DNA from: Candidatus Methylomirabilis oxygeniifera
GTDB lineage: Bacteria > Methylomirabilota > Methylomirabilia > Methylomirabilales > Methylomirabilaceae
DNA length: 32,000 nt
Direction: 5' to 3'
Assembly: GCA_000091165.1 (NCBI GenBank)
Contig: FP565575.1
Location: 2,160,001-2,192,000 of the forward strand
Part shown: one piece after another, positions 7,476 through 26,943 of the stretch
Layout of the letters: each line of letters starts with the position of its first letter
How positions within the stretch are numbered: the first letter of the stretch is position 1
The notes under the pieces: generated by a model
The model's database searches: none
What the model was told of the DNA's origin: nothing
The model's input: the letters and a program-made list of their open reading frames with translations, nothing else
Made by a program: the position numbers and the translations under genes

Positions 7476-7490
7476 GTGAACCTCCAGTGA

Positions 7491-7571
7491 GCGCTCAGCC
7501 ATCAGCAGTCAGCAGAATCAGGATAAGGAAACGAAGGCTGATCGCCGAAAGCTGACTGCTGTTCGCTTCAG
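7491..7571. repeat. Heptad-repeat hairpin element, TCAGC/GCTGA type (copy A)
   Basis: Left units are GCGCTCA GCCATCA GCAGTCA GCAGAAT. Right units are GCTGATC GCCGAAA GCTGACT GCTGTTC GCTTCAG. Terminal stem is CAGCAGTCAGC / GCTGACTGCTG. Fills the gap between the cupin stop (7568) and the kinase start. Confidence 0.8.
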
Positions 7572-12405: not shown

Positions 12406-12468
12406 GAGGGTTGAGGGTTTAATCAAAGGGGACCCCCTAGACCCTAAACCCTAGGCCCTATACCCTTT
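12406..12468. repeat. Heptad-repeat hairpin element, GGGTT/CCCTA type (copy B), 9 x 7 nt
   Basis: GAGGGTT GAGGGTT TAATCAA AGGGGAC CCCCTAG ACCCTAA ACCCTAG GCCCTAT ACCCTTT, between the envC-like stop (12395) and the ctpA start (12485). Confidence 0.8.
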
Positions 12469-12484
12469 CTCTTAGGAGGAATCG

Positions 12485-13825
12485 ATGAGATTCGGAGATC
12501 TGTTTCGAAAGGGGCGGAAGGGTGTCGTCATCATATTGACGATGGCGTTGTTGGTCATCGGTGGCGGCGGCCACCATGAGGTCACGGCTGTCGAGGACAG
12601 CTACGAACGGCTGAAGGTCTTCGCCGAGGTCCTGTCGCTGATTCAGGCGAATTACGTCGAGGAGACGAAGCCTCGCGACCTGATCTACAGCGGCATTAAG
12701 GGAATGCTGGAGTCGCTGGATCCTCACAGCGCCTTCATGCCGCCCGATATCTTCAAAGAGATGCAGGTTGAGACTCAGGGCTCGTTCGGAGGGCTGGGAA
12801 TCGAGATCACGGTCAAGGACAGGATGCTGACGGTGGTGGCGCCGATTGAAGGGACCCCCGCCGATCGGGCCGGGATTCACCCTGGCGACCGGATCGTCAA
12901 GATCGACGGAAGTCCGACGAAAGACATGACCCTCATGGAGGCGGTAAAAAAGCTCCGAGGTCCAAAGGGGACAAACGTGGTTGTGACTATCCTCCGCGAG
13001 GAGTCCCCTGGGCCGTTCGAGCTGACGTTGGTTCGGGAGATCATCGAGGTCAAGAGCGTCAAAGTCAAAGAGTTGGGCGATGGGGTCGCCTACGTCCGGA
13101 TCAGCGCGTTCCAGGAACGAACCGGAAAGGACCTCCAGAAGGCGATCGAACAGTTGGGACAGAACGGGATGTCCGCGATGGTGCTGGATCTTCGCAACAA
13201 CCCGGGCGGCCTCTTAAACCAGGCTGTTCAGGTGTCCGAACTGTTCCTGGACCAAGGGCAACTCATCGTCTACACCGAGGGTCGGATCAAGAATCAAGAT
13301 CTCCGCTTCTCGGCGGAACACGGGGCTCAGATCCCCAAGGTTCCTATGGTGGTCTTGGTGAACGGAGGATCCGCCAGCGCCTCCGAGATCGTCGCGGGCG
13401 CGCTTCAGGACTGGAAGAGGGCCGTAGTCCTTGGAACCAAGACCTTCGGGAAGGGGTCGGTGCAGACAGTGGTTCCGCTAAGCGATGGTTCCGGCCTGCG
13501 TTTGACTACGGCAAAGTACTTCACGCCAAAAGGGCGATCAATCCACGGCACAGGACTTGTGCCTGATATCATTGTGGAGGCGCCACGGCCCACCATGGCG
13601 AAGGCACAGGTTGACCCCGCTGAAAAGGAGAGTGAGTCGGGGAAAGAGCGTCCTGAGAGACGACAGGAGAAGAAGATCTCCGAAGAGGAGGGAGACGTCA
13701 CGCTCCAGATCGGCAAGCGAGAGGGGCCTGATCCCAGCACCGACGTCCAGTTGAAGCGAGCAATGGAGATTCTCAAGGCCAGCCAGATCATCGAGAAGGG
13801 ATTCATGAAGGGGAACGCTGGATAA
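12485..13825 (+). CDS. ctpA: Carboxy-terminal processing protease (S41A, PDZ-containing)
   Basis: 446 aa with TM/signal anchor, PDZ (GLGIEI...GTPADRAGIHPGDRIVKIDG) and catalytic blocks (LDLRNNPGG, GSASASEIVAGALQD, TFGKGSVQ). Confidence 0.9.
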   Translation: MRFGDLFRKGRKGVVIILTMALLVIGGGGHHEVTAVEDSYERLKVFAEVLSLIQANYVEETKPRDLIYSGIKGMLESLDPHSAFMPPDIFKEMQVETQGSFGGLGIEITVKDRMLTVVAPIEGTPADRAGIHPGDRIVKIDGSPTKDMTLMEAVKKLRGPKGTNVVVTILREESPGPFELTLVREIIEVKSVKVKELGDGVAYVRISAFQERTGKDLQKAIEQLGQNGMSAMVLDLRNNPGGLLNQAVQVSELFLDQGQLIVYTEGRIKNQDLRFSAEHGAQIPKVPMVVLVNGGSASASEIVAGALQDWKRAVVLGTKTFGKGSVQTVVPLSDGSGLRLTTAKYFTPKGRSIHGTGLVPDIIVEAPRPTMAKAQVDPAEKESESGKERPERRQEKKISEEEGDVTLQIGKREGPDPSTDVQLKRAMEILKASQIIEKGFMKGNAG

Positions 13826-13829
13826 GGCA

Positions 13830-13892
13830 GCAGTCAGCCATCAGCATTCAGCGGTCAGCTCCAAGCTGTTTGCTGAGAGCTGATAGCTGCTC
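13830..13892. repeat. Heptad-repeat hairpin element, TCAGC/GCTGA type (copy C), 9 x 7 nt
   Basis: GCAGTCA GCCATCA GCATTCA GCGGTCA GCTCCAA GCTGTTT GCTGAGA GCTGATA GCTGCTC, all in one 7-nt register. Lies 5 nt after the ctpA stop and 7 nt before the tsaD start. Confidence 0.85.
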
Positions 13893-13898
13893 TTCACA

Positions 13899-14987
13899 AT
13901 GGCACATCTGACTCTGGGAATTGAAACCTCGTGCGATGAGACGGCGGCCGCTATCCTGGAGGATGGTCGACGCATCCGTTCTTCCGTCGTCGCCTCTCAG
14001 GATCTCCTCCACGCCCCTTACGGCGGGGTCGTCCCCGAATTGGCCTCACGTCGTCATACAGAGGTTATCTGGCCGGTGGTCCGGGAGGCGTTGACGAGGG
14101 CGGGGGTCGGCCTCGACAACCTTGATGGCATTGCGGCAACGTCAGGGCCAGGACTGATCGGCTCGCTGCTGGTTGGCCTCTGCTTCGGAAAGGCGCTCGC
14201 CTTTGCCTGTGGAATCCCCCTAGTCGGCGTAAACCACCTAGAGGGACATCTCTATGCCGCCCTGTTGGATCACGAAGGGCTTTCCTTCCCCTTCACCGGA
14301 CTCGTGGCATCGGGTGGTCATACCCACCTGTACCTGGCCACAGCCCCTGGCGAGTATCGCTTGCTGGGCCGAACCAGAGACGATGCCGCAGGAGAGGCAT
14401 TCGACAAGGTAGCAAAGTTTCTCGGTCTCGGTTATCCGGGCGGGCCGCTGATCGAGAAGTGGGCCCAGAAGGGCGATCCGAACGCTGTACGGTTTCCCAG
14501 GTCGATTCCTCCGCGAGGCTCATACGATTTCAGTTTCAGCGGCCTGAAGACCGCAGTGGTGAATTACGTGAAGAGTGCAACGTTCAAGGTTCAAGGTTCA
14601 GGGGAACCCCCCCTATCCCCTAGCCCCTCGACCCTAGACCCTCGTGTGGTGGCGGACATCTGCGCTGGATTCCAGGAGGCTGTGGTGAATGTGCTGGTTC
14701 GCGTGAGTCTGGCGGCGGCGAAGGCGTCCGCCTCTCGCCGTCTCGTGCTGGCCGGAGGGGTGGCCTGCAACGGCAGGCTCCGCTCGGAGTTTGTGGAGCG
14801 GGCACCAGGGGAAGGCGTACAGGTCTACTACCCCACGCCGTCTCTGTGTACCGATAACGCCGCCATGATTGCTGCCGCCGGTTACCCTCGTCTTCTGCGC
14901 GGCGAGCGAGCCTTACTCTCGCTGAACGCCGACGCCGATCTCGCTCTTGGCCTGTCTGCGTGCCCCACACAGGCAGACCTGACATAA
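13899..14987 (+). CDS. tsaD: tRNA N6-adenosine threonylcarbamoyltransferase TsaD, carrying a 21-codon repeat-derived insertion
   Basis: 362 aa with canonical blocks (LGIETSCDETAAAI, GPGLIGSLLVG, VNHLEGH, ASGGHT, DDAAGEAFDK, GGVACN, CTDNAAMIA). Confidence 0.95.
   Translation: MAHLTLGIETSCDETAAAILEDGRRIRSSVVASQDLLHAPYGGVVPELASRRHTEVIWPVVREALTRAGVGLDNLDGIAATSGPGLIGSLLVGLCFGKALAFACGIPLVGVNHLEGHLYAALLDHEGLSFPFTGLVASGGHTHLYLATAPGEYRLLGRTRDDAAGEAFDKVAKFLGLGYPGGPLIEKWAQKGDPNAVRFPRSIPPRGSYDFSFSGLKTAVVNYVKSATFKVQGSGEPPLSPSPSTLDPRVVADICAGFQEAVVNVLVRVSLAAAKASASRRLVLAGGVACNGRLRSEFVERAPGEGVQVYYPTPSLCTDNAAMIAAAGYPRLLRGERALLSLNADADLALGLSACPTQADLT
14583..14645 (+). repeat. Heptad-repeat element (GGGTT/CCCTA type, copy G) embedded in frame in tsaD, 9 x 7 nt
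   Basis: TTCAAGG TTCAAGG TTCAGGG GAACCCC CCCTATC CCCTAGC CCCTCGA CCCTAGA CCCTCGT. Corresponds to codons 229-249 (FKVQGSGEPPLSPSPSTLDPR). Confidence 0.8.
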
Positions 14988-15507: not shown

Positions 15508-15569
15508 CTTTCGGCGATCAGCAGTCAGCTTGAAGCTGAAGGCTGAACGCTGATGGCTCTGACTGCTAT
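15507..15569. repeat. Heptad-repeat hairpin element, TCAGC/GCTGA type (copy D), 9 x 7 nt, between convergent genes
   Basis: GCTTTCG GCGATCA GCAGTCA GCTTGAA GCTGAAG GCTGAAC GCTGATG GCTCTGA CTGCTAT. Stem is AGCAGTCAG / CTGACTGCT. Touches the def stop (15505-15507) and the SurA-like stop (15566-15568). Confidence 0.85.
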
Positions 15570-16615
15570 AACTTCATTTCAACGTTGGCTTTGGTCCTGA
15601 GACTCTCAATCCACTCCTTGAATTTCGTCTCGGTCTTTTGCTCAAACAGCAGAGCGCGGAGGCGCTCCTTCACCTGATCGAATGACAGGGTCTGACCGGG
15701 AACCCGCTCCTCGACGACAATAAGGTGGAAGCCGGCCGGAGTCGTGATGATGCCGCTGGGCTGTCCGATCGGGAGGGCGAGAGCAGCCTGCTCCAACTCC
15801 GGTGCGAGTTCTCCGTGCTTCATCGTCCAGACCTCGCCGCTGGACGACGCGAGCGGCCCTTCCGCATATTGCTTGGCGACCGTCGCGAACTGTGTTCCCT
15901 TCTTAAGAAGCGTCTGCGCTTCCTCGATCCGCTTCTTGGCTCGCGACAGCTCGCCGGGCGTCGCCTGAGGGGGCGTAGCCACGAGGAGATGGCGAATCTT
16001 GAATTGCGGGATCTCCCTGAATTGGTCCTGCCGTTGCTCGTAATATTGCTGGACCTCCTCATCGAGAACGACGACCTTGGCTCGTACCCGCCTCGCCACC
16101 AGCTTCGTCAGCATCACCTGGTCGGCAATCCCCTTCCGAAACTGCTCCTCGCTGAGTTGTTCTCTGGACAGCGCAGCCCTGAGTTCCTCGTCGCTGGCTA
16201 ACCCATTACGCTTCTTTAATTCCTCGATGGCGGACTGTATCTCCGCAGGGGCCGTCTCGATCTTCTCCTTTGTCGCCTCCTGAAGCTGTAACCTCCTGAG
16301 AATCAGCTCGTCCAGAATCTGGCGTTCCGTACTGCGAAGCAGCCGCTCTCGCTCCGCTCCCAGCGTTTCCCGTACGATCCTTCGGATAGCCTGAATCCCC
16401 TCCTCTTGCACGTCGGTCAGGGTAATCACATCATCGTTGACAACGGCAACGATGCGATCGAGGATCACCGCATCGGCGCCTGAAGCGGCGAAAACACTGA
16501 GCAGAAGGATAACAGTCATAAGGGAAGCGTGGAGCGTGGAGCGTGGAGCGTGGAAGGATAGACCGACCCTGCTCTGCCGCCTGCCGCCTGCCGCCTGCTG
16601 CCTTGCTCGTTTCAT
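15566..16615 (-). CDS. SurA-like periplasmic chaperone / PpiC-type peptidyl-prolyl isomerase
   Basis: SurA N-terminal-like helical domain plus a parvulin domain (FKIRHLLV...GELSRAKKRIEEAQ...GG.V..M..GEL.PE...A...L..GQ.SGII.T..GFHLI). Start taken at ATG 16615, which overlaps the mfd stop as ATGA. An alternative internal ATG at 16519 lacks a charged n-region. Confidence 0.8.
   Translation of the reverse strand: MKRARQQAAGGRRQSRVGLSFHAPRSTLHASLMTVILLLSVFAASGADAVILDRIVAVVNDDVITLTDVQEEGIQAIRRIVRETLGAERERLLRSTERQILDELILRRLQLQEATKEKIETAPAEIQSAIEELKKRNGLASDEELRAALSREQLSEEQFRKGIADQVMLTKLVARRVRAKVVVLDEEVQQYYEQRQDQFREIPQFKIRHLLVATPPQATPGELSRAKKRIEEAQTLLKKGTQFATVAKQYAEGPLASSSGEVWTMKHGELAPELEQAALALPIGQPSGIITTPAGFHLIVVEERVPGQTLSFDQVKERLRALLFEQKTETKFKEWIESLRTKANVEMKL
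16523..16606. repeat. Heptad tandem-repeat element (copy E), 12 x 7 nt in one register, no obvious hairpin
   Basis: GGAAGCG TGGAGCG TGGAGCG TGGAGCG TGGAAGG ATAGACC GACCCTG CTCTGCC GCCTGCC GCCTGCC GCCTGCT GCCTTGC. Corresponds to codons 4-31 counted from ATG 16615 (codons 6-33 of the ORF-track ORF starting at GTG 16621). Confidence 0.8.
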
Positions 16616-19600
16616 CGACACGCCTGAAGACGCGACAATAGCGTCTGAGCAATAGCGATCTTGTCGCCTCCCTCTACCTTGTATTCCAGTTCATCGTACC
16701 CTGTACGGTAACCTCCCACGGGCCCCCCTTTTGTAGAGGAGGGATGGGAGGATTTCGGAATATAGCGTAATCGGCCGCCCTCTTCACGAAGCAGAGTCGC
16801 GACCTTGTCCGGAGCAAGCGGCGGCGACTCATCGAACACGATACGGATCGTCTTGCCCACGACAACAGCCTCGCGAATGTGGAGCGTCCGGGCCAGGATT
16901 CTAAGCGCCATCGCGGTCAGCAGCCGTTCCGTCTCTGGAGGAGGCTCACCAAAGCGATCGACCAGCTCCTCTCGAAGGGCGGAGACCTCCGACAACCCAG
17001 AGAACGCGGCCAATCGCTTGTAGAGCTGGAGCCGTACGTTGGAATCCTCTATATAGATCTCCGGCAGATACCCTTCCGCCTCCAGCCTGATGACAGGCTC
17101 GACGGGTTCCGCCACCGCCTGACCCTTCAACTCTTTGACCGTTGACTCGATCAATCGGCAGTACAGATCAATCCCTACGGCGGCGATCTGGCCGTGCTGC
17201 TCCGGTCCCAGGAGGTTACCCGTGCCCCTGATCTCCAGATCTCTCGCCGCCACCTTGAATCCGGAGCCAAGCTCGGTCAGTTCTGCAATGACCTGGAGTC
17301 GCTTCTTTGCCGTCTCAGACAGCGCAGCATCCTTCGGTACCAGGAGGTAGGCGTAGGCTCGATGCTTGTCCCGACCGACCCGTCCGCGAAGCTGATAGAG
17401 CTGCGCGAGGCCCAAGGCATCGGCTCGATCGATAATGATCGTGTTGGCGGCGCTGACATCCAGGCCGGATTCGATAATCGTGGTACACAACAGGACATTG
17501 AATGTGCCGTCGTAGAAGTCGCACATGATCCGTTCCAGGCGTTCTTCCGGTAATTCGCCGTGCGCCACCGCCAGTCTCGCCTCAGGAACCAACTGCTTGA
17601 TCAGACGCGCCACGCCCTGGATGCTCTCCACGCGATTATGGACGAAGAAGACCTGCCCCCCTCTGTCCAGCTCGTGCTCTATCGCCTCTTTGATGAGCGC
17701 CGGGTCGAACCTGGCGACGGTCGTTTTGATCGAGAGACGGTTATCCGGCGCGGTCTCGATGGTGCTGATGTCCCGGACTCCCAACATCGACATATGAAGG
17801 GTCCGCGGAATCGGTGTGGCGGTAAGCGTCAGGACATCGACCTGTCGCCGCAGTTGCTTCATGCGCTCCTTAGCCGCGACGCCAAAGCGGTGCTCCTCAT
17901 CCACCACTAACAGCCCCAGGTCTCGAAACCGGACATCCTTCTGGAGCAGGCGGTGGGTGCCGATCACGATATCGACAACCCCCTCACCGACGCCACGCAG
18001 CACCTCGCTCTGCTCCTTGCGGCTGCGGAAGCGTGAGAGCATCTCAACCTTAGCCGGAAAGCCGCCGAACCGCTCGGAAAACGTCTGAAAATGCTGCAGG
18101 GCAAGGACCGTAGTCGGCACCAGCACCGCGACCTGCTTTCCCCCTATGATCGTCTTAAAGGCGGCCCGCATCGCCACCTCGGTCTTACCGTATCCGACGT
18201 CGCCGCAGATCAGACGGTCCATCGGCCGGTCTCGCTCCATGTCGGCCTTGACGTCGGCGATCGCCTGGAGTTGGTCCGGGGTTTCCTCATATGGAAATCC
18301 AGCCTCGAATTCCCGTTGCCACGGCGTATCGGGGGGGAGGGCATGCCCTTTGATGACCTGTCTGGACGCATACAGCGCGAGCAACTCCTGGGCCATCTCG
18401 CGAACGGACGCCTTGACCCGCTCCTTGGCCTTGGCCCACGAGGCGCTCCCCAACCGGTCGAGGGTCGGTGGATTGCTGTCAGCACCCGCATACCGATGGA
18501 TCAGGTGGAGTTTACCGGTAGGCACATACAGCTTGGCGTGCTCGGCATAGAGGATGAGCAGGTAGTCACCCTCCGTCCCGCCCACAGTAAGCTGCCGCAG
18601 CCCTTTGTACACACCGATCCCGTGATCCTCGTGAACCACAAAATCGCCATAGGTCAACTCCTGGTACGAGGCAAGAGGGGAGATCTCCTTTGGTCGCAAG
18701 CGTCGAGGTGGGATGTGCCGAGCCCCAAAGATCTCGGCTTCGGTGATATAGGTCAGCAATGCCTCATCCAGATGAAAGCCGCTGCTGAGCTCGTGAGAAA
18801 GAACGGCAATCTCACCCGGCGACGCCACGCCGAGCCCGACAGACGCCGCGACATCGTGCTCCCTCAGTACCTCAGCCAGGCGCCCACCCTGGGCCTCACT
18901 CCTGCAGACCAGGTGGATTTTCCGACCCTGCCGACGCCACTCTTGGAGGTCGCGTATCAATTCGGTCATTCGTCCACGGTAGGCCGGAATGGTGCGTACC
19001 TGAAACCCGAGAGTCGCCTCTTCCGCAAGGCTGTTCGTCGGTAAGAACTCCTCCATGTAGATCCGCGGCCGCAGAGAGAGCCTCTGTTCAACGTCGCTCC
19101 AGTCGACCAGTGAGGTGGACGGCGCGACGTCGCGCGCCGCAGCCCGGAGGCCGGTCGGATCTATCAAGACCCACAAGGCATCCGGAGCTACGTACTGCAG
19201 GAGATCGGCCGGTTCCGGATAGAAGTATGGAAGATACGTATCGAGGCCCAGGACCTGTCGCCGATCCTCAAGCGCCGTGATGATCTCGGACGGAACCGAG
19301 CTGTCCCGGGTCTTCTTCATCGCGCGGAGCACCTCGAGGGCCCGCCGACATACCTCACCGGTCAATGGCGCCTCTACAACCGGCAGGACGGTCACCTGCT
19401 CAACGGAGCCGATGGACCGCTGGGTAGCCGGATCGAATGCACGGAGTTCAAGTATCTCGTCACCGAAGAACTCAGCGCGAACAGGACAATCCGGCGGTTC
19501 GACACGGCCTGTGGTGAGCCCGGTCGAACCGTTCAGGCTGGGTGTGAGGGGGAACAGGTCGAGGAGGTTCCCGCGCAGGCTGTATTCGCCGCGGTCTGTC

Positions 19601-26700: not shown

Positions 26701-26878
26701 CCTGGGGCGGCAGGCTGGGGGCCTCAGTTTGAATGACGACCTGGGGCGGGGCGAACTCGGGAAAGACATCGAGGGTGATCCGACGTAGCGTGAATAGGCC
26801 GACAATCAACAGAACCACGAAGGCAACCACTACGAGGACGCGATTTGTCAGCGACCGTTCGATGATCCAGGCAAACAT
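23765..26878 (-). CDS. Heavy-metal-efflux RND inner-membrane pump (CusA/CzcA family)
   Basis: 1037 aa with 12-TM RND topology and two large periplasmic loops. TM4 motif is AIGEVVDDAIVDVEN. Confidence 0.95.
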   Translation of the reverse strand: MFAWIIERSLTNRVLVVVAFVVLLIVGLFTLRRITLDVFPEFAPPQVVIQTEAPSLPPQDVEFLITFPIESAINGTPGVEVIRSKSTAGLSSVVVVFKWGTNIYTARQLVSERLRMVEDRLPAGTKNPMMLPITSAVGWLVKYALTSDSVSLMDLRTISDWEIRNRLLAIPGVASVVSIGGEVKQYQALLSSDKLFQYDVTVQEVLNTIKRANVSVPGGFLVTPGQEYVITGAGRISSLQELQQTKVAERGGTPIRLDQVATVRFGPEFKRGDATWEGKPAVIGTVSKLFGVDTVTVTYQVEQALEEIRKTLPPGVELNTQVFRQASFIESSIANLRQAILEGVVVVSIVVIFILFNVRASLITLTALPTSLISGVLLLKAFGIGINAMTLGGLAIAIGEVVDDAIVDVENIIRRLRLNQEKARPDPPLKVIYEASVEIRHAVVHATWIVLIVFMPIFLLGGVEGRIFTPLGLAYTFAILASLLVAVTLVPALAAMLLIRRGEAQPEQESLTVRAIKRAYETLLRRALRHPGPVMVVCMLLIAASLAVIPFLGRSFLPEFREGNFILQVTMLPGTSLQESMRVGGRIVGILKQHPEVISVSQRAGRAELDEEALPPNVSEFDIAIRYSARDPEMLLQAIREHLERVPGVATVLGQFISHRLDEVLSGIRAQIAIKLYGPDLTVLRAKGRQVEQIMRDIKGVTDLLLEPLINVPGVRITVDREEASRLGLDVGDILETTEVAFGGRSISRVVEGQRAFDLFVWFDETSRKDRASMRNLLIDAPEGRKIPLRLVADLQIVNSPFMINRERLQRRIVVQANVADRDLIGVIREVQGRIAREIQLPAGYFIEYGGQFESEREATRVLMVYGGLAVIGIFLMLYKAFNSTRAALLVMANLPLALIGGVAAILLTGMVTSVPSLIGFISVFGIAARNGIILVSHYRQLRAEGVSKEEAIIQGSKDRLAPVLMTAAAAALGLLPLLFGEATGKELERPLAQVILGGLFTSTLLNMIVVPTLFMRFGWEREEVFRQQMAMEGRLT

Positions 26879-26880
26879 TG

Positions 26881-26943
26881 TGAATAAGCTGTCAGCACTC
26901 AGCTATCAGCGCTCAGCAAGAGCTGACGACTGACTGCGGACGA
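26881..26943. repeat. Heptad-repeat hairpin element, TCAGC/GCTGA type (copy F)
   Basis: GCTGTCA GCACTCA GCTATCA GCGCTCA GCAAGAG CTGACGA CTGACTG CGGACGA (26888-26943), in the 115-nt gap between the adaptor and RND genes. Confidence 0.8.

Follow-up and report, generated by a model that had tools for sequence, protein, structure and literature searches.

The tsaD gene in a 32-kb stretch of the genome of Candidatus Methylomirabilis oxyfera (phylum NC10/Methylomirabilota), which as a whole is called the window, contains an in-frame array of tandem 7-nt units at positions 14574-14645. The array is considered the tsaD representative of paired heptanucleotide arrays that occur throughout the lineage, in which two arms of ~4 units are placed around a short spacer. 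With a probability of about 0.75, this stretch of tsaD is a passenger repeat tolerated in a permissive loop of the enzyme, and most likely it serves no purpose of its own there. The heptads repeat at the DNA level and do not reflect a conserved peptide. The host gene and the parts of the array are the following:

13899-14987, plus strand: tsaD, coding for 362 aa and harboring the array (TIGR03723 and structure matches).
14574-14603, plus strand: left (G/T-rich) arm, AGTGCAA CGTTCAA GGTTCAA GGTTCAG GG, encoding SATFKVQGS (from the sequence and Tandem Repeats Finder).
14604-14610, plus strand: center or spacer GAACCCC, separating both arms (from the sequence).
14611-14645, plus strand: right (C-rich) arm, CCCTATC CCCTAGC CCCTCGA CCCTAGA CCCTCGT, encoding LSPSPSTLDPR (from Tandem Repeats Finder and codon phases).

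The host open reading frame (ORF) at 13899-14987 is without doubt tsaD (YgjD). It matches the TIGR03723 equivalog model over its full length with 410.5 bits (curated cutoff 296.1), and solved TsaD structures match the product with E values of 1e-83 to 1e-87. The best Foldseek matches of its AlphaFold2 model are the TsaD proteins of E. coli, Salmonella, and Aquifex (TM-score 0.80-0.88).

The array, located internally at 65% along tsaD, is composed of four nGTTCAn units, a 7-nt center, and five CCCTnnn units. Tandem Repeats Finder showed period-7 arrays at 14578-14600 and 14610-14642 (3.3 and 4.7 copies), and a lag-7 scan (at least 16 of 21 matches, with mononucleotide shuffles as the null) flagged 14567-14646 within the gene. 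In both analyses the 7-nt units lie head to tail, as in STRR-like heptameric repeats. The first-pass annotation of this DNA had described nine 7-mers at 14583-14645, and these are present in the sequence exactly as listed, with the left arm in that register reading TTCAAGG TTCAAGG TTCAGGG from 14583. The start of the array was placed too late, since in the register of the relatives a degenerate unit (14574-14580) and CGTTCAA at 14581 precede; the center in the common register is GGGAACC. The center GGGGGAACnACCC is also found in the minimal allele (L082) and in L104 (genomes are given by L numbers and proteins by P numbers). The same annotation had claimed that the unit types recur in an intergenic element upstream, which was confirmed: CCCTAGA is common to the tsaD array (14632-14638) and that element (12435-12441).

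The conceptual translation of the heptad stretch is FKVQGSGEPPLSPSPSTLDPR, in the sole frame free of stops. The TAG-avoiding frame proposed earlier was correct, as both TAG triplets (14621 and 14635) fall in codon phases 2 and 1 and none falls in phase 0. The predicted tryptic peptide of M. oxyfera TsaD covering the array is VQGSGEPPLSPSPSTLDPR. The right-arm units of the window start in codon phases 1, 2, 0, 1, and 2. The only phase-0 unit is CCCTCGA, with TCG where the other right-arm units mostly read TAG or TAT (e.g., the neighbors CCCTAGC and CCCTAGA). Similarly, CAG or TAT stands in those units of L104 in which a TAG or TAA would have fallen in frame. TCAGC-type coding alleles have TCAGC-like units in both arms, and not TCAGC on one side with GCTGA on the other; three GCTGA units would put TGA in frame at any phase. 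For the intergenic hairpin regions, 25 of the 120 reading frames through them are open. The frame and stop patterns make sense only with ribosomes reading through the array, and therefore we infer that the segment is translated into peptide and not bypassed.

Heptads are located at the loop site in every Methylomirabilis tsaD that was read as DNA, with units that differ among the genomes:

L081: (GGTGTCG)x4 GAGGCAAAG (CCCTACC)x4.
L094: (CGTTCAG)x4 ATAGTACTTCG (CTTCAGC)x4.
L083: (CAGTCAG)x4 ... (CTTCAGC)x4.
L085: CGTTCAA CGTTCAA GGTTCAA GGTTCAG ... (CTACAGT)x4.
L099: (GGTGCGG)x3 ... CCCTAGC CCCTAAA CCTTATA CCCTAGA.
L101: (GGAGGCA)x3 ... (CCACGCT)x3.
L104: GGGTACA GGGTATA GGGCACA GGGCATA ... CCCCAGA CCCTAAA CCCTATC CCCTAGA.
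L082, L087, L089, and L098: minimal form GGGTGTAGGGGGAACTACCCTAGACCC.

Units are alike within an arm and unlike between genomes, which is a sign of homogenization. Among the relatives, nucleotide identity is 83-94% in the tsaD flanks and 30-64% in the loop. The variation of copy number and sequence at one locus among close relatives that is typical of STRR-like repeats is found at tsaD. The 21-nt stretch CGTTCAAGGTTCAAGGTTCAG of the left arm of the window is identical in L085 and the right arms of the two are unrelated; therefore, the arms behave as separate modules. No 21-residue segment is conserved among the orthologues, each having its own heptad units, and in this respect the earlier proposal of repeat DNA inside tsaD is upheld.

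The length of the loop was taken as the number of residues between FSFSGLKT and xDICAGFQ in 91 Methylomirabilis-type TsaD proteins. The TsaD of the window has 33 residues between FSFSGLKT and ADICAGFQ, against 16 in E. coli, and the variable loop length expected from the single sequence was verified. The lengths form three series, that is, 19 (6 proteins), 26 (17), and 33 aa (27), then 30 (3), 37 (15), 44, and 51 aa, and finally 38 (8) and 45 aa (4). In total, 85 of the 91 lengths fall in three residue classes modulo 7. In TsaD proteins of other phyla the loop has 19 aa in 51 of 79 cases, and 15-19 aa in most.

Pairs of proteins with 96-99.7% identical flanks differ by clean indels of 7 aa (21 nt, three units):

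PRPFTLD, between P0044 and P0065.
PRPSTLD, between P0038 and P0073.
ARCEVRG, in the left arm, between P0060 and P0071.
SPRPYPL, between P0027 and P0032.

Seven aa correspond to three heptads (21 nt), and no smaller change of units keeps the frame. The 26-aa alleles are of two kinds, with either a long left and a short right arm or the reverse, and therefore each arm toggles by three units independently. In the case of P0005 and P0012, the flanks are 100% identical and the array type is wholly swapped. The first-pass annotation had reasoned that only multiples of three units preserve the frame, and the 7-aa spacing of the series and the indels agree with it. Its view of a nine-unit element of 21 codons that landed in the gene must be modified: the window allele exceeds the shortest, canonical-length Methylomirabilis allele by 14 aa (42 nt, six units), so only ~42 nt are extra, and the arms vary independently. 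An artefact of assembly or sequencing in a repeat-rich region has a practically negligible chance. Short-read assemblers can collapse or expand short repeats, but the identical 362-aa protein is found on 11 contigs from different sources, one of them of 2.75 Mb, and in-frame arrays exist at this site in dozens of independent assemblies.

The array of tsaD belongs to a periodicity that is specific for lag 7 and genome-wide in Methylomirabilis, as counted in the 32-kb window and in syntenic loci of 13 kb. The window contains eight lag-7 arrays and none at the other lags from 4 to 13 (harmonic lag 14, five arrays; shuffles, 0.05). Eight syntenic Methylomirabilis loci, 108 kb together, contain 30 lag-7 arrays, of which about half are intergenic, and no more than one array at any other lag from 4 to 12. 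The out-group was formed by 80 tsaD loci of other phyla, among the matches listed in a search with TsaD peptide patterns; in these 477 kb from 80 genomes, 13 lag-7 arrays were found, not above the codon-related lags 6, 9, and 12. Array sites recur across the Methylomirabilis loci in the spacers between the M23 peptidase gene and ctpA, between ctpA and tsaD, and between def and surA, in the tsaD loop, and in the first 30-35 codons of surA. The other arrays of the window are:

12406-12469, plus strand: intergenic palindrome GAGGGTT x2 ... CCCTAGA CCCTAAA CCCTAGG CCCTATA, from the M23 peptidase gene to ctpA (Tandem Repeats Finder, lag scan).
13824-13892, plus strand: intergenic palindrome (nnTCAGC)x4 TCCAA (GCTGAnn)x4, from ctpA to tsaD (sequence, lag scan).
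15525-15560, no strand assigned: intergenic GCTGAnn hairpin between the convergent def and surA (lag scan).
7487-7567, no strand assigned: intergenic TCAGC/GCTGA palindrome, from a pfkB-like to a cupin gene (lag scan).
26887-26935, no strand assigned: intergenic TCAGC/GCTGA palindrome between ORFs ending at 26878 and 26994 (Tandem Repeats Finder, lag scan).
16517-16611, minus strand: in-frame pair (GGCGGCA)x4 - 21 nt - (CCACGCT)x4 within codons 1-33 of surA as annotated (lag scan and reading).

The intergenic copies form ladder hairpins with 4-5 bp and an internal loop of 2-3 nt per unit. As RNA, 12406-12469 folds at -29.2 kcal/mol (z -2.6, plus strand), 13824-13892 at -38.4 kcal/mol (z -4.9 on the plus and -5.8 on the minus strand), and 26887-26935 has a z of -2.4 on the minus strand. 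The intergenic copies were also compared for strand asymmetry through G-U pairs, which would point to selection on the RNA, and no consistent difference between strands emerged. The orthologous spacers of other genomes have other unit types or no array; for instance, the spacer corresponding to 12406-12469 is empty or has other units in the relatives.

The array pair of surA precedes the core of the SurA signal peptide, and the surA ATG overlaps the stop codon of mfd (ATGA). Lag-7 arrays occupy this position in all seven genomes covering the site, and the frame of the start region is open in all four genomes read at the sequence level despite their differing units. The relatives show other units here (GGGTTTC/CCTATAC), and L083 has a C-run hairpin where the right arm would be. 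The RNA of the surA copy folds as a ladder with 4 bp and a 3x3 internal loop per heptad (L082 surA, z -3.8).

Similar repeats were observed outside the genus. In metagenome-assembled genomes (MAGs) of Pyrinomonadaceae, perfect or near-perfect heptad palindromes adjoin tsaD (L037:1850-1936, L037:3869-3954, and L005:2856-2966), an example being (AGTCAGG)n ... (CCTGACT)n at -71.8 kcal/mol; therefore, the two-armed heptad architecture is not confined to Methylomirabilis. In a Thermodesulfovibrionia MAG (L002:3011-3080), the corresponding TsaD loop has 28 aa, a lag-7 identity of 0.56, and heptad/14-mer periodicity. It folds as a ladder hairpin (AAGCGTA ATGAGTT AAGCGTA ATGGGTA ... ATCACAC ATCACGC ATGACGC), and from its sequence it looks like an independent colonization of that loop in another phylum.

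The tsaD loop is also occupied by other repeats. One of them is a C-run hairpin of ~46 nt, ATCCCCC..CCCCCCTTTnnnAAAGGGGGG..GGGGGAT, with an in-frame translation of the PPLxKGG type. In the tsaD loop of L102 it is represented by the 46-nt hairpin ATCCCCCCACCCCCCCTTTCCAAAAGGAGGGTACGGGGGGAT (peptide IPPPPLSKRRVRGD). In L103, a GTAG-type palindrome, GTAGGGGCAGGGCTTGCCCTGCCC...GCGCCCCTAC (peptide VGAGLALPKAGAASSAPT), is placed between both heptad arms inside tsaD (L103:6667-6792), and this palindrome is also exactly central in a TCAGC heptad palindrome of the spacer between ctpA and tsaD (L103:5887-6000). These positions suggest that hairpin centers may serve as insertion targets. The copies of the C-run hairpin are:

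L102:1475-1520, in a spacer.
L102:6667-6831, in tsaD.
L083:8611, minus strand, in surA.
L081:8819, in mfd.
16708-16752 of the window, minus strand: degenerate copy SSHPSSTKGGPVGGY in mfd.

A discrete mobile palindromic element (of the MITE, REP, or Rickettsia palindromic style), inserted once or repeatedly and having the heptads as its internal structure, is a possible though unlikely explanation. The intergenic copies are true palindromes whose presence varies at orthologous sites, two other clearly discrete repeat families occupy the same tsaD loop, and unrelated arrays exist in alleles with identical flanks. Moreover, the D-type array (GGnGGCA)n - 21 nt - (CCACGCT)n is shared by the tsaD loop of L101 and the N-terminal part of surA in several genomes. 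The resemblance of the D-type spacers between tsaD and surA is weak. On the contrary, the array has no fixed consensus, length, or ends, and no direct duplication is visible around it. Its arms vary independently (4+1, 1+4, or 4+4 units), its units are homogenized within an arm and differ between genomes, and most of the tsaD copies lack a palindromic form. Among the loci compared, GATAGTAGTTCGC, the spacer of the tsaD alleles with TCAGC-like units, is restricted to tsaD, which argues for descent in place.

Folding was analyzed on both strands for the window and L081 and on the sense strand for the other relatives (five relatives in all). The tsaD copy of the window does not favor a hairpin (z +1.1 in sense and -0.8 in antisense against shuffles), and the analogy with Rickettsia palindromic elements drawn in the first-pass annotation fails as regards the fold. 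The copies of L081, L083, L085, and L094 fold no better than shuffles and that of L099 is marginal (z -1.3). The sole tsaD copy with a significant small hairpin is the minimal allele (z -2.9). The hairpin reading of the tsaD copy was rejected on the folds of both strands of the window copy and of the relatives; there is no evidence of selected structure, which is short of proof of its absence. The Rfam scan gave no family at the tsaD element, and its three sub-threshold matches elsewhere are attributed to chance.

The template strand of 14611-14645, as the complement of the five CCCTnnn units, has five GGG tracts at 7-nt spacing, and the sense strand has GG runs only. The array consequently has the G3 tracts that mark the quadruplex repeats of the GGGNATC type, with four or more of them on one strand, 7 nt apart. 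In Xanthomonas/Nostoc, G-rich heptamers of four units form G-quadruplexes in vitro (PMC4692102). As a general explanation, the G-quadruplex was rejected because the TCAGC-type arrays have no G tracts. It is very improbable that the array is a functional nucleic-acid element, that is, an mRNA hairpin or G-quadruplex pausing the ribosome or polymerase, or a contingency locus switching tsaD off. The G tracts, the hairpin of the shortest allele, and the perfect fourfold repeats of L081 and L094, which would be prone to slippage, are in its favor. Against it, the sense RNA of the window copy is no more stable than its shuffles, the TCAGC-type alleles lack arm complementarity as well as G tracts, and the unit types are not conserved. 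As for a contingency locus, a frameshift at the site is seen in none of the 91 alleles, with the limit that frameshifted genes would be under-represented in protein databases. In addition, tsaD is essential in most bacteria tested, which makes an off switch unlikely.

In the AlphaFold2 model of the window TsaD, the mean confidence (pLDDT) is 82.8 and falls below 50 at residues 230-241. These residues are bracketed by helices 214-231 and 248-276, of which the first is alpha7. The loop is permissive and predicted to be disordered in this model. The tolerant surface loop assumed earlier is not just any loop, as it follows alpha7. According to the cryo-electron microscopy of TsaBD with tRNA (2026), this helix touches the D-stem by its first turn, together with the FSFSGLK motif before it (PMC13276492). 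The insertion starts at the C-terminal, far end of alpha7, near enough to the substrate that it may influence tRNA binding.

A decidedly improbable alternative is that the longer loop is an adaptation of TsaD peculiar to this lineage (e.g., a flexible arm beside alpha7) for which the repeats merely supplied residues. In its favor, the loop starts at the end of a helix whose first turn, with FSFSGLK, contacts the tRNA D-stem (PMC13276492), 85 of the 91 relatives keep at least 26 aa, and more distant Methylomirabilota (P0107-P0119) have Arg-rich loops of similar length with no repeat visible in the protein. However, the loop is conserved neither in its residues nor in its length, disorder is predicted for the segment, and canonical 19-aa alleles are found in several independent assemblies (L082, L087, L089, and L098). 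The conservation of a DNA unit over all three reading frames is the signature of a process at the nucleotide level.

The passenger repeat probably evolved as follows. A DNA-level process that fills the spacers of the lineage with two-armed heptad arrays has also occupied the loop of tsaD. The array would be transcribed and translated into a low-complexity Gly/Ser/Pro peptide, which the enzyme would tolerate. Each 7-nt unit moves the reading frame by one; for this reason, the changes that survive comprise three units (21 nt, 7 aa), and units placing TAG, TAA, or TGA in frame have to be mutated. Inside these bounds the turnover of the array is rapid. Blocks of three units are gained or lost, presumably through slipped-strand mispairing or recombination between repeats 21 nt apart, the units of an arm are homogenized, whole arrays are replaced, and other small palindromic repeats are nested inside. 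The periodicity, the limits set by frame and stops, the 21-nt quantum, the hypervariability, the place in the loop, and the weak folding were observed directly, and slippage, neutrality, and the making of the peptide were deduced from them.

Several points weigh against this scenario. Its neutrality is inferred from non-conservation, yet only 6 of the 91 alleles have the canonical 19 aa, and the loop adjoins the alpha7 helix that binds the tRNA D-stem, so that a longer loop may carry a weak benefit or cost. The swap between P0005 and P0012 suggests replacement by recombination or insertion more than slippage. The 7-mers common to the tsaD array and other arrays of its own genome were 48 against a permutation mean of 33.7, which is not significant with seven genomes (P = 0.14). 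The z-scores against shuffles are blunt for G-rich or C-rich arms, and partial in-register pairing of the arms is kept in the tsaD copies of L081 and L099 and in the surA copies; a residual structural role of the coding copies may exist.

A bolder and rather improbable proposal is that a dedicated DNA-level process not yet described writes and rewrites two-armed ladders of 7-nt periodicity. Besides Methylomirabilota, it would operate in Pyrinomonadaceae, Thermodesulfovibrionia, Xanthomonas, and Nostoc, either through transfer or by separate origin. Genes and spacers would be equally open to it, with selection keeping the outcomes that are quantized by 21 nt and free of stops. A hairpin-targeting nuclease or transposase, or a template-switching repair pathway, may be candidates for it. 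If true, such a process would regularly supply core proteins (TsaD, SurA, and Mfd) with new low-complexity loops and N-terminal extensions, and the centers of heptad hairpins would be landing pads for other small mobile palindromes.

In the neighborhood of the array, ftsE, ftsX, the M23 peptidase gene, ctpA, tsaD, and def are on one strand and surA and mfd on the opposite strand, and this order from ftsE to mfd is kept in all seven relatives whose DNA was fetched. The tsaD of M. oxyfera has a second in-frame insert of 27 nt, TCTGCGTGCCCCACACAGGCAGACCTG, at 14955-14981 (plus strand), with a GTCTGC/GCAGAC stem and flanking CCTG direct repeats. It adds SACPTQADL just before the stop codon; M. oxyfera and L081 have this insert, and L082, L083, L101, and L104 lack it. 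The length of Mfd ranges from 1095 to 1166 aa among the relatives due to in-frame blocks, and in other genomes inserts of the PPPIPPPRRGEGQGGG type are located near those of the window, which are all on the minus strand:

16708-16752: the degenerate C-run hairpin.
19510-19533: 8-aa block NGSTGLTT.
19216-19332: 39-aa block.

Two further observations concern the neighboring genes. The M23 peptidase of L081 is called with 428 aa instead of 411 (17 aa longer), and a TCAGC heptad array lies at the 3' end of its gene (L081:4520-4558), which seems, from the sequence, to be read into the C-terminus of the protein. Inside the ctpA coding region, a sub-threshold Rfam match to Rickettsia sRNA47 at 13349-13467 (minus strand; 30.9 bits, gathering score 60, E 3e-05) is probably due to chance.

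When the unit length of a repeat is not divisible by three, one expects selection to remove it from genes or to find it working as an on/off switch. The tsaD array, which persists in a core gene of tRNA modification, is thus a natural experiment on the constraint of the reading frame, where the surviving steps are all of three units and each third unit has been edited against stops. The loop between alpha7 and alpha8 of TsaD takes 19 to 55 residues of arbitrary sequence, and it could be useful for engineering tags or insertions. As a warning for annotation, the length differences of TsaD, SurA, and Mfd in Methylomirabilis originate largely from repeat DNA. Moreover, the site offers a tractable model for the origin of bacterial heptamer repeats, a question posed since their over-representation was noted (PMC4692102).

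No publication was found that ties Methylomirabilis to heptanucleotide or palindromic repeats, although a search does not prove absence. New features are the persistence of a non-triplet repeat in a core gene across the genus, with visible 21-nt quantum and stop patching, the use of one loop by several repeat families, and, as far as the literature search tells, the host phylum Methylomirabilota.

Compared with known systems, Rickettsia palindromic elements, BRE, and RUP are small repeats fused in frame into genes (Delihas 2011, PMC3184786). Like the Rickettsia elements, the tsaD array is a repeat of non-coding type that lies in frame and adds a peptide at a tolerated position. The Rickettsia elements have ~105-146 bp, a family consensus, and a palindromic fold (PMC3184786), whereas the tsaD array has 63-72 nt, 7-nt units, steps of 21 nt, no fixed consensus, and no hairpin; in-frame insertion is shared, and a dispersed consensus and a stem-loop are not. 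The terminal inverted repeats and target-site duplication of MITEs are also missing, since by eye there is no flanking direct duplication and the arms are not complementary. The intergenic heptad copies resemble REP/REPIN sequences in being short GC-rich hairpins between genes, and the GTAG-starting palindrome (GTAGGGGCAGGGC...GCGCCCCTAC) nested in the heptad centers of L103 recalls REPs as insertion targets. Nevertheless, the heptad arrays are periodic ladders without the single-palindrome motif containing GTAG, and the occupation of coding DNA is atypical of REPs. By their defining features, the array is outside the families of Rickettsia palindromic elements and MITEs, and probably also outside the REPs.

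The TAACTGA heptamers, direct repeats of Beggiatoaceae, Cyanobacteria, and Bacteroidetes (MacGregor 2015, PMC4679880), share the unit length of 7 nt. They are likewise mostly intergenic, with occasional copies in ORFs where proteins tolerate them, and one orientation stops all frames while the other is translatable (PMC4679880). Their coding copies are found at the start or end of proteins or in hypothetical ORFs, with one fixed unit and in direct arrays only (PMC4679880). The tsaD array, on the contrary, is internal and two-armed, has many unit types, and was followed over ~90 orthologues.

The build of the array is akin to that of the TAACTGA heptamers and of the heptameric repeats that are over-represented in bacteria, namely the cyanobacterial STRR and the GGGNATC/GGGGAYT repeats of Xanthomonas and Nostoc (Rehm et al. 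2015, PMC4692102). In its effect on the protein, it is akin to the Rickettsia elements. The heptamers of Xanthomonas and Nostoc are also tandem, often imperfect 7-nt units (GGGANTN-like; here GGGTnnA), with a strong preference for about four units and frequent inverted pairs able to form stem-loops. They lie mostly between genes of the same direction, and their length and sequence vary extensively among close relatives at each site (PMC4692102). They were reported as under-represented in coding regions and were not analyzed there (PMC4692102), whereas the tsaD array is inside the gene of a core enzyme. Moreover, the arrays of Methylomirabilis mix unrelated units (TCAGC, CCCTA, and GGCGGCA/CCACGCT), and therefore the formation of G-quadruplexes cannot be their common denominator. 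Unlike the heptamers of Xanthomonas and Nostoc, the tsaD array is kept in frame, changes by a quantum of three units, and has its stop codons patched.

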